From assembly GCA_019057865.1 (NCBI GenBank), contig JAHLWP010000002.1, positions 33,293 to 97,292 on the forward strand: DNA of 64,000 nt, written 5' to 3'. Position 1 is the first letter of the stretch. Each line of letters begins with the position of its first letter. Positions 26,950 through 27,744 of the stretch are shown here, in pieces. The DNA is from Promethearchaeota archaeon (GTDB lineage Archaea; Asgardarchaeota; Lokiarchaeia; Sigyniarchaeales; SOKP01). The notes beneath the pieces are model-generated. The model was not told the origin of the DNA and made no database searches. It worked only from the letters and a program-made list of their open reading frames with translations. Made by a program: the position numbers and the translations under genes.

Positions 26950-27744
26950 TTAATTCTTTTCTTTTCTTGAGGGAATAAGAGCAATTTCATCATCATCTTC
27001 AATACTATAATCTTTTATATGTGAGTTTTCATCTAATAATATGCCTCCAGAGGATAAAAGAAAATCTTTGAGATTGTAATCAAATAATATTCCGACTCTT
27101 TCTTTAACTGTACTTATTAATTCGGTTGTATCGATTATAATTATATTTGTTTTTTCACCTGGCTTAACTAATGATCTTAGATAAACCCGGATCTGGTCTT
27201 CTATTTCAATAGGATTCATAGGCGGTGTATATATTATCTCCCCATCAATTCTATCTCTGTTTTTTAACATATTTTTGATTAAAATTTTTCTCTCAGTTGC
27301 ATCAAAATATAACATTTCCCTGATAAACATTATCTTATCCATTTTTGATAATCCTAAAAAGTTTATTTTATCTAATTCTTCCTGACTAAATACTGTAAAA
27401 ATATATTTGTTAATTACCTCTATATTTTCATAGGATTTATCTGATTCAACATATACTTTTATTGAAGGCATGGTATTAATATAATCTGCAATAATATCAG
27501 CAATTTTCTTCTTAATCGCCTTTGGTTTTGCAACATATTTTTTTTCTCTTAATCTTTCATCCTGGGTACCTTTTGACTGTATAACTGTATAGATGGTACT
27601 AGTGGATAGTACTGCAACACTACCAATAGTTAGAAAGAGAAATAAAGGAGTACTTTCTATACGGAATAGGAAAAAAAGAATATAAATCAAAATAAAAAAA
27701 GAATAAAGAGTTATAACAATTAAAACGCTATATTTTTTCCTCAT
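26950..27744 (-). CDS. Membrane-anchored protein (2 N-terminal TM helices) with C-terminal ubiquitin-like domain, no terminal Gly
   Basis: The C-terminus IIIIDTTELISTVKERVGILFDYNLKDFLLSSGGILLDENSHIKDYSIEDDDEIALIPSRKEKN is collinear with the two free UBLs. Confidence 0.6.
   Translation of the reverse strand: MRKKYSVLIVITLYSFFILIYILFFLFRIESTPLFLFLTIGSVAVLSTSTIYTVIQSKGTQDERLREKKYVAKPKAIKKKIADIIADYINTMPSIKVYVESDKSYENIEVINKYIFTVFSQEELDKINFLGLSKMDKIMFIREMLYFDATERKILIKNMLKNRDRIDGEIIYTPPMNPIEIEDQIRVYLRSLVKPGEKTNIIIIDTTELISTVKERVGILFDYNLKDFLLSSGGILLDENSHIKDYSIEDDDEIALIPSRKEKN

Follow-up and report, generated by a model that had tools for sequence, protein, structure and literature searches.

What does a membrane protein do with a copy of ubiquitin that cannot be conjugated? 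This question is raised by a stretch of 64,000 nucleotides (nt) from a Promethearchaeota archaeon (contig JAHLWP010000002.1), hereafter the window, which has about 29% G+C and carries a ubiquitin cassette. Among prokaryotes, the ubiquitin cassettes of Asgard archaea offer the best model for the origin of eukaryotic ubiquitin signalling. The gene in question, which we call memUBL (26950..27744, minus strand), encodes a membrane protein of 264 amino acids (aa) with a C-terminal ubiquitin-like (UBL) domain, and with it the Lokiarchaeal cassette has a conserved extra component. memUBL is a type II UBL-domain protein, i.e., it has a ubiquitin fold inside a larger protein and lacks a conjugatable end, and within the archaeal ubiquitin system it more probably serves in regulation or docking than as a modifier. 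Arguing by analogy with known systems, we tentatively favour the view that memUBL may be the membrane-tethered partner of a winged helix-turn-helix (wHTH) protein, with its ubiquitin decoy serving as an input or a docking handle, although we give this proposal somewhat less than an even chance.

The ubiquitin-fold domain, the tail module and the membrane anchor

The memUBL gene is real and under selection. An initial annotation of the window, made from its sequence, had described a 264-aa open reading frame (ORF) with two N-terminal transmembrane (TM) helices. Both hold: the ORF is present as described, with an ATG start and a stop after codon 264, and hydrophobic helices occupy aa 7-26 and 34-55. 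The protein begins MRKKYSVLIV and ends LIPSRKEKN. A database search found 402 homologues, with conserved length and start, of which the best 120 have 243-276 aa and are 62-77% identical; among 34 aligned homologues, 51 residues, including M1, are invariant, and these are spread over all parts of the protein. Most database records label the homologues as hypothetical proteins, and some as 'ubiquitin-like protein'. The relatives all come from Lokiarchaeota-type metagenome-assembled genomes. As to nomenclature, the NCBI phylum 'Promethearchaeota' contains the single class Promethearchaeia.

From its N- to its C-terminus, memUBL consists of a two-helix membrane hairpin, a basic linker, a helical module of about 90 aa and a ubiquitin-fold domain (aa 181-259; 26968..27204, minus strand). 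The last of these is a paralogue of the free modifiers of the cassette. BLASTP aligns memUBL aa 173-260 without gaps to both of them, at 38% identity to Ub1 (26538-26903, plus strand; E 1e-19) and 37% to Ub2 (28781-29113, plus strand; E 1e-20), which bears out the collinearity with the free modifiers that the initial annotation had proposed; the sequence strings that it quoted are also correct. The Pfam ubiquitin family (PF00240) matches aa 197-256 with an E-value of 1.5e-5 and 25.1 bits, where the cut-off is 25.4 bits, and a precomputed PF00240 match is present on many memUBL orthologues. An AlphaFold2 (AF2) model of the domain has strands at 184-191, 200-205, 228-232 and 252-258 and a helix at 210-220, in the element order β1-β2-α1-β3-β4-β5, with a predicted local distance difference test (pLDDT) score of 66-84 over aa 181-260. 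Comparing this model to the PDB with Foldseek gave 617 matches at E ≤0.001. Nearly all of the top 50 are ubiquitin, ISG15, SUMO, UBL domains such as that of Dsk2, or Caldiarchaeum ubiquitin, and typical top matches have target TM-scores of 0.8-0.9 and root-mean-square deviations of 1.2-2 Å over 75-81 columns. The C-terminal domain is thus predicted to adopt the ubiquitin β-grasp fold, as the initial annotation had supposed.

Two narrower assignments of the domain were rejected. A SUMO-like assignment is without support from Pfam or Foldseek, and an assignment to UBX disagrees with the loop, which reads LSSGG, and with the top 50 Foldseek matches, none of which is described as UBX. The UBX-domain membrane anchors Ubx2 and UBXD8/FAF2, which recruit Cdc48/p97, do resemble memUBL in combining a hairpin insertion with a β-grasp domain that has no Gly-Gly end. 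However, the best structural matches of memUBL are ubiquitin, ISG15 and UBL domains, and it has SSGG where UBX has the R...FPR loop.

The end of the protein decides whether it could be a modifier. The free modifiers terminate in PAS(T/I/V)AG. memUBL instead has the tail SRKEKN (26953..26970, minus strand) at the position of the modifiers' ...STAG, and this tail contains no Gly. A C-terminal Gly occurs in none of the 34 aligned homologues and in none of 68 genome-derived orthologues. Every tail in both sets reads ...(A)LIPSRK and then has zero to eight mostly charged residues, and S259, R260 and K261 are conserved in at least 90% of homologues. Because the tail spans positions 71-76 plus one residue in an alignment to human ubiquitin, its length has been kept and the activatable Gly lost. 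E1 enzymes adenylate the C-terminal Gly carboxylate of ubiquitin-like modifiers, and canonical E1 activation and transfer are therefore excluded for memUBL. The earlier description of this domain as non-conjugatable is sound with regard to canonical E1 chemistry.

In other respects, the domain has remained close to the free modifiers. It shares with them the β-grasp, 37-38% identity over about 88 residues and the motifs PGEK, LSSGG, DY and LIP, whereas it differs in lacking the C-terminal Gly, in being fused behind a hairpin and a helical module, and in two changed patch residues. The four motifs are the loops most conserved between the two kinds of protein, and their counterparts in ubiquitin, namely the L8 loop, the 46-48 loop and strand 5, form its main recognition surfaces, which fits partners in common with the free modifiers.

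The central part of memUBL (aa 78-168; 27241..27513, minus strand) is a six-helix domain of about 85-90 aa that is common to at least 20 other proteins, and which we call the tail module. This protein group is defined in the present analysis and is absent as a database family. Its consensus (alignment A2) is ...EELDKIDLLxLSxxEKxxFIxEiLxLxPxERxxLIxxmL, and memUBL belongs to it in having the helical domain with this signature after a TM anchor and basic linker, and in matching the hidden Markov model (HMM) of the module with an E-value of 5.7e-34. When 1.84 billion representative proteins were searched with memUBL aa 1-180, without a profile, 43 relatives were found. Profile searches of an indexed protein database with the module (A2) and with a zinc finger plus module (A3) returned six matches each, all of 72-227 aa, so the size of the module family and its range of ectodomains are under-sampled. 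Within the 64-kb window, memUBL has the only copy. AF2 predicts six helices for the module from a 27-sequence alignment (mean pLDDT 77), while the full-length memUBL model, built from the 34-sequence alignment, has N-terminal helices at 2-26 and 32-59, a low-confidence linker at 54-113 and four helices at 108-161.

The module has no significant match in Pfam, NCBIfam, PDB sequences or PDB structures (best Foldseek E 3.7). The initial annotation had called it a central domain of unknown family, which is correct as far as these databases go, but it missed that the domain is a mobile module shared with receptor-like proteins. A likeness to Cue1_U7BR or FliG_N was rejected, given sub-threshold Pfam scores (best E 0.01) in 4-5 of 27 sequences, no PDB sequence match and nothing better than E 3.7 from Foldseek. 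Yeast Cue1 has a TM anchor and a helical E2-binding U7BR and recruits Ubc7 to the endoplasmic reticulum. It is thus reminiscent of memUBL in that a small helical domain follows a membrane anchor in a ubiquitin pathway; however, with only chance-level Pfam matches to Cue1_U7BR (4 of the 27 module sequences, best E 0.01) and no structural match, we do not treat the two as related.

The proteins that share the module (P numbers; L numbers designate loci) have 183-1912 aa and carry one or two copies at their extreme C-terminus. The ectodomains of these relatives include Laminin_G_3 (LamG) domains, TSP3 repeats, NosD/β-helix domains and β-propellers, often behind an N-terminal signal-like segment. 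In most large relatives (P0137-P0163; loci L088 and L091-L098), the tail consists of a TM segment, a Lys-rich linker, an 'AELAKTExEV' motif, a zinc finger and the module, in this order. The zinc finger has eight ligands with PHD/RING-CH-like spacing (C-x2-H-x11-12-C-x2-C-x4-C-x2-C-x10-C-x2-C) and is not recognized by Pfam. We do not claim homology between it and the finger of the RING-like protein in the cassette, for which hhalign gives a probability of 5.6%. Two finger-plus-module proteins, P0145 and P0178, are soluble, i.e., have no TM segment. Their genes (L089 and L102), on two unrelated contigs, adjoin a gene for an AMP-binding (acyl-CoA synthetase-like) protein and have no wHTH gene nearby.

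These relatives also bear on which side of the membrane the UBL domain occupies. TM helix 1 (aa 7-26; 27667..27726, minus strand; hydropathy 2.6) lies within AF2 helix 2-26 and is followed by TM helix 2 (aa 34-55; 27580..27645, minus strand) and by a Lys/Arg-rich juxtamembrane linker (aa 56-80; 27505..27579, minus strand) that is predicted to be disordered (pLDDT <50). The family mean number of Lys and Arg residues is 3.4 in the N-terminal tail, 0.5 in the 7-residue loop between the helices and 8.6 in the 25 residues past TM helix 2. By the positive-inside rule, this distribution implies a hairpin with both termini in the cytoplasm. Moreover, the match of memUBL to P0137, P0142 and P0155 extends from TM helix 2 through the central domain and coincides with their single C-terminal TM anchor and tail, and the N-terminal parts of these three proteins are extracellular-type domains. 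Type-I proteins of this kind have the homologous tail in the cytoplasm, and the module of memUBL, with the UBL domain behind it, should therefore lie there as well. We therefore predict that memUBL is anchored by a hairpin with its UBL domain on the cytoplasmic face, the side on which the membrane role suggested in the initial annotation depends, and both the charge distribution and the homology led us to reject an extracellular UBL domain.

Linkage to the cassette and pairing with a double winged-helix gene

Around memUBL, the cassette comprises Ub1 (121 aa, with an acidic N-terminal extension and ending ...STAG), whose gene is convergent with memUBL, and a divergent enzyme operon on the plus strand. 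This operon begins with Ub2 (110 aa, also ending ...STAG) and continues with an E1 (ThiF; 29194-30429), an E2 (UQ_con; 30534-31061), a JAB/MPN protein (31042-31878) and a RING-like polytopic membrane protein (31908-33077). The last combines about five to six hydrophobic segments with a Ser/Thr/Arg/Pro-rich linker of about 100 aa and a C-terminal Cys-rich finger, so this putative ligase is itself predicted to be membrane-embedded. Between memUBL and Ub2 lies a gene for a 220-aa double-wHTH protein (27842..28504, minus strand). It has an N-terminal domain and two ArsR/SmtB-type winged-helix domains (aa 73-124 and 148-210), as well as sub-threshold similarity to the SdpR autorepressor family, and it is our candidate for a partner and regulator.

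To survey linkage, one genome per GTDB species was scanned, which yielded 79 memUBL loci, all Lokiarchaeota-like. Neighbours were detected by tblastn with the proteins of the window and counted in the 73 loci with a near-complete memUBL, in each case only where the locus was long enough to judge. The wHTH gene neighbours memUBL in 69 of 70 informative loci, Ub1 in 67 of 68, Ub2 in 63 of 65, E1 in 59 of 62, E2 in 55 of 58, JAB in 53 of 57 and the RING-like protein in 52 of 55. Divergent homologues share this arrangement. A homologue with 38-44% identity in L101 retains the order Ub2 | wHTH > memUBL | Ub1, and homologues at the same level of identity in L086 and L087 retain the part of the order that their short contigs cover. 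The cassette thus adjoins memUBL in almost all Lokiarchaeal species representatives, and the linkage that the initial annotation had assumed is conserved; what it missed is that the wHTH gene is the tightest partner.

This tightness is apparent from the loci that have changed. Insertions or rearrangements affect the gap between wHTH and Ub2 (L025, L035, L073 and L081) or that between memUBL and Ub1 (L060 and L072), and among the surveyed loci with such changes none has an insertion between wHTH and memUBL. The pair persists where insertions have displaced the enzyme genes (L073 and L081), and L063 retains Ub1-memUBL-wHTH while enzyme genes were not found in the 10 kb upstream. We regard the wHTH gene as the tightest partner of memUBL because the divergent loci, the positions of insertions and L063 all leave the pair intact. 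In the window, the wHTH gene lies 97 nt upstream of memUBL on the same strand, a distance that is 85 nt in most species.

The pairing is not confined to memUBL. In L088, a β-helix surface protein with the finger-plus-module tail (P0161) is preceded directly by a gene for a 227-aa protein that shares 41% identity with the wHTH protein of the cassette (E 7e-46). We found further pairs by scanning metagenomes for finger-plus-module tails and with an HMM of the wHTH family: a wHTH paralogue is followed by a 1466-aa protein in L092, by a 1291-aa protein in L096, and by a 1360-aa protein and then a tail-bearing protein in L097. An upstream codirectional wHTH paralogue is thus present in four of six informative module-protein loci, directly adjacent in three of them; L095, where an adjacent wHTH copy is downstream of the module gene, was left out of this upstream count. 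The unit of a double-wHTH gene followed by a TM-anchored module protein is therefore common to four of the six module loci and to 69 of the 70 memUBL loci.

The two genes of the pair are also linked by a shared DNA element of 20 nt. Site A, CCATTGGAATGATTTTGAAG (28672..28691, minus strand), is in the divergent intergenic region between Ub2 and wHTH, beside a TATA-like box. Site B, CCATTGGAATAAATTTGAAG (27801..27820, plus strand), is in the spacer between wHTH and memUBL and is inverted relative to site A. This inverted pair flanking the wHTH gene has the consensus CCATTGGAAT[A/G]A[A/T]TTTGAAG, and a TATA-like box precedes each copy on the copy's own strand. When three mismatches are allowed, the element has exactly two matches in the 64 kb, where 0.14 would be expected, and its core occurs in 58 of 103 fetched loci, only at one or both equivalent positions. 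In L101, both copies have changed alike, to GGGAAT(A/G)AAT(G/A)TGAAG. Both the Ub2/wHTH intergenic region (28505-28780, about 270 nt) and the spacer are conserved in length across about 60 species and contain blocks of at least 80% identity. A 52-aa ORF in the former (28559-28717, minus strand) was rejected as a leader peptide, since its ATG is absent in 33 of 60 species, and the conservation there is therefore at the level of DNA. Judging from these sequence patterns, the element is a plausible candidate for an operator of the wHTH protein, although it is just as possible that site B is a promoter for antisense transcription into the wHTH gene. In any event, the shared element ties the memUBL gene into the control region of the cassette.

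Possible functions of memUBL

Pairs in which a transcription factor is sequestered at the membrane by the product of the adjacent gene are known from bacteria, e.g., SdpR-SdpI in Bacillus subtilis and SigI-RsgI in clostridia, and SigI-RsgI pairs combine variable sensors outside with a conserved anti-factor domain inside. The arrangement described here is similar in several ways. The regulator gene is directly upstream of the membrane-protein gene and co-directional with it, the arrangement recurs in paralogous pairs (69 of 70 memUBL loci; L088, L092, L096 and L097), the membrane partners keep one cytoplasmic domain and vary the other, and the wHTH protein has ArsR/SdpR-type similarity. However, memUBL has no homology to SdpI or RsgI, sequestration of the wHTH protein is only our proposal, and a cytoplasmic ubiquitin copy as input would be unprecedented in those systems.

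With these differences in mind, the regulatory model would work as follows. memUBL and the double winged-helix protein, whose gene immediately precedes its own, would function together, with the tail module of memUBL binding or signalling to this partner at the membrane. For the receptor-like relatives, an extracellular domain would provide the input. The extracellular loop of memUBL has only about seven residues, and we therefore propose that its input is instead the cytoplasmic ubiquitin decoy. The decoy might be read by whatever reads free ubiquitin, i.e., the E1, the E2, the JAB protein or the membrane RING-like protein, and its occupancy or ubiquitylation would shift the amount of wHTH protein held at the membrane. 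Through such retention, memUBL could adjust how strongly the divergent Ub2-E1-E2-JAB-RING operon and the wHTH-memUBL pair itself are transcribed. At a minimum, memUBL might set a permanent ubiquitin-like handle at the membrane beside a membrane-bound ligase. The wHTH pairing, together with the presence of the module in receptor-like proteins that are paired with wHTH paralogues, makes regulation or signalling at least as likely as passive docking. A broader generalization is doubtful, namely that Lokiarchaeota have a family of transmembrane signalling pairs, each with a double-wHTH regulator and a module-tailed membrane protein (often with the RING/PHD-spaced zinc finger), and that the ubiquitin cassette is governed by a member that uses a dead-end ubiquitin as its sensor.

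It is important to consider several observations that weigh against the regulatory model. The centre of the hydrophobic patch differs systematically, with L/A in memUBL and H/L in the modifiers at the equivalents of I44/H68, and the UBL domain may therefore not bind the same partners as the free modifiers. Two of the six informative module loci, namely L094 and that of the soluble P0145/P0178, have no upstream wHTH gene, and around the wHTH paralogues, no comparable inverted pair of operator sites was found above the AT-rich background. Tandem winged-helix proteins are not always transcription factors, and the tail module is without a recognizable relative of known function. Finally, flanking genes that are unrelated to ubiquitin (those for the coiled-coil, nucleotidyltransferase and MJ0043_C proteins) are kept as often, in about 95% of loci. 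The 15-kb neighbourhood is thus syntenic among fairly close genomes, and the counts make adjacency by itself look like stronger evidence than it is.

The rival closest to the regulatory model is the one put forward in the initial annotation, which invoked docking modules of the Herp/Usa1 type and suggested that the system acts at the membrane. As a pure docking platform, memUBL would recruit ubiquitin-recognizing machinery to the inner face of the membrane and have no role in transcription; candidates are the proteasome or Cdc48-type ATPases, the ESCRT-I UEV protein, the E2 and the JAB protein, in the manner of Herp/Usa1, TMUB1 and the UBX-domain anchors. The UBL domain is predicted to be cytoplasmic and correctly folded, it keeps the ubiquitin-like loops, and memUBL sits within the cassette. 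In addition, the RING-like protein of the cassette is polytopic too, which strengthens the case for action of the system at the membrane. In eukaryotes, a non-cleavable in-frame ubiquitin on a membrane protein suffices for ESCRT sorting. Published assays have shown ubiquitin binding by UEV/ESCRT-I proteins of Lokiarchaeota (PMC9192718), which also speaks for docking; however, the ESCRT genes of Lokiarchaeota are in a separate region (PMC9192718), and there are none in this window. Docking would also leave unexplained the near-obligate wHTH pairing, the sharing of the module with receptor-like proteins paired with wHTH paralogues and the shared cis element, and the analysis turned up no receptor. 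Herp/Usa1 and TMUB1/2 are membrane proteins with an integral UBL domain, and they share with memUBL a membrane anchor and a cytoplasmic, non-conjugatable ubiquitin fold beside a membrane-embedded RING ligase. Yet there is no sequence similarity beyond the fold and no Hrd1 or endoplasmic reticulum-associated degradation (ERAD) context, and memUBL is paired with a wHTH gene and has a Lokiarchaeal tail module. The domain order also differs: the UBL domain is C-terminal in memUBL and N-terminal or central in the others, and the Herp/Usa1 ERAD-scaffold order of N-terminal UBL and C-terminal hairpin is reversed. Herp/Usa1 is therefore an analogy only, and we consider pure docking unlikely, though it deserves serious attention.

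Other explanations have lower probability. memUBL could be a membrane-anchored acceptor or primer, in which lysines of the UBL domain are ubiquitylated by the E2/E3 of the cassette to give anchored chains, or turnover of memUBL and of cargo on its module. Ubiquitin-fusion-degradation substrates in eukaryotes provide a precedent, in that the fused ubiquitin copy is itself ubiquitylated. K200, K214 and K261, in or just after the UBL domain, are invariant or at least 90% conserved, a membrane RING-like ligase is encoded 4 kb away, and ubiquitylation could also be the trigger step of the regulatory model. On the other hand, conserved lysines would be expected for structural or charge reasons too, and we regard this role as improbable. 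Rather less probable still is a competitive inhibitor, where the UBL domain binds the E1, E2 or JAB protein non-productively and damps the cascade near the membrane. A tail that has the modifiers' length and no Gly fits this notion, as does the conservation of the shared loops, but a soluble decoy would be enough, so that the membrane anchor and module are unexplained, and the tail residues read by E1 differ (SRK versus AST). That memUBL is a decaying gene fusion or a mis-called ORF without function has practically no chance of being right: nothing favours it except that most records carry no annotation beyond 'hypothetical protein', and it is effectively refuted by conservation, given 402 homologues, 51 invariant residues across all domains and retention in place in 79 species-representative loci. 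Note that the regulatory, docking and acceptor/primer explanations are not mutually exclusive.

The closest known systems to this cassette are the operon-encoded ubiquitin systems of Caldiarchaeum and Asgard archaea (PMC5654768, PMC9192718), which likewise cluster modifier genes with those for an E1, an E2, a JAB protein and a RING-like protein. A full-text literature search found papers on Asgard ubiquitin and ESCRT, none of which describes memUBL, its module or its wHTH pairing. Eukaryotes are known to use membrane proteins with an integral UBL domain that cannot be conjugated. What is new here is an archaeal version, in which a copy of the cassette's own modifier is joined to a new module and a wHTH partner. 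The Lokiarchaeal cassette therefore already holds this eukaryote-like device, and it is tied to the membrane through both memUBL and the RING-like ligase. The protein pair, the 20-nt DNA site and the UBL domain are defined and thus testable handles on its regulation, and the link between wHTH proteins and the module hints at a lineage-specific transmembrane signalling system in Lokiarchaeota.

Other features of the cassette and its flanks

The free modifiers have some peculiarities of their own. Both have an N-terminal extension of 30-45 aa before the β-grasp (26538-26660 in Ub1 and 28781-28880 in Ub2), which is unusual for ubiquitin. It starts out acidic and becomes rich in Lys, Pro, Ala and Thr further along (MGFDEEFDEDLDEDLEE...KTPVAKAVPAGKK). 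Moreover, Ub1 and Ub2 terminate in a single Gly rather than in Gly-Gly. In about 13 of 60 species (loci L007-L085), Ub2 has one to three residues past this Gly (STAGYF, TAGTFK, STAGKA and others), and these are precursor forms that need trimming at the C-terminus, presumably by the JAB protease.

Two closed chromosomes appear to have broken cassettes. In L048 (CP070831.1, 8159-8569), one of the exceptions to the linkage described above, a run of N inside the E1 gene represents an assembly gap, and in L042 (CP070805.1) a truncated wHTH gene lies beside memUBL, with no enzyme genes nearby. These cases may be artefacts of assembly or masking rather than biology.

The left flank of the cassette in the window (21198-26337, minus strand) encodes an FtsZ/tubulin-like protein, a protein with an MJ0043_C domain, a nucleotidyltransferase-like protein and a highly charged coiled-coil protein of 338 aa. 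Its synteny with the cassette, in about 95% of loci, is as strong as that among the genes of the cassette. On the opposite strand, this flank also has a small, Cys-containing ORF of 80 aa (22639-22881, plus strand).

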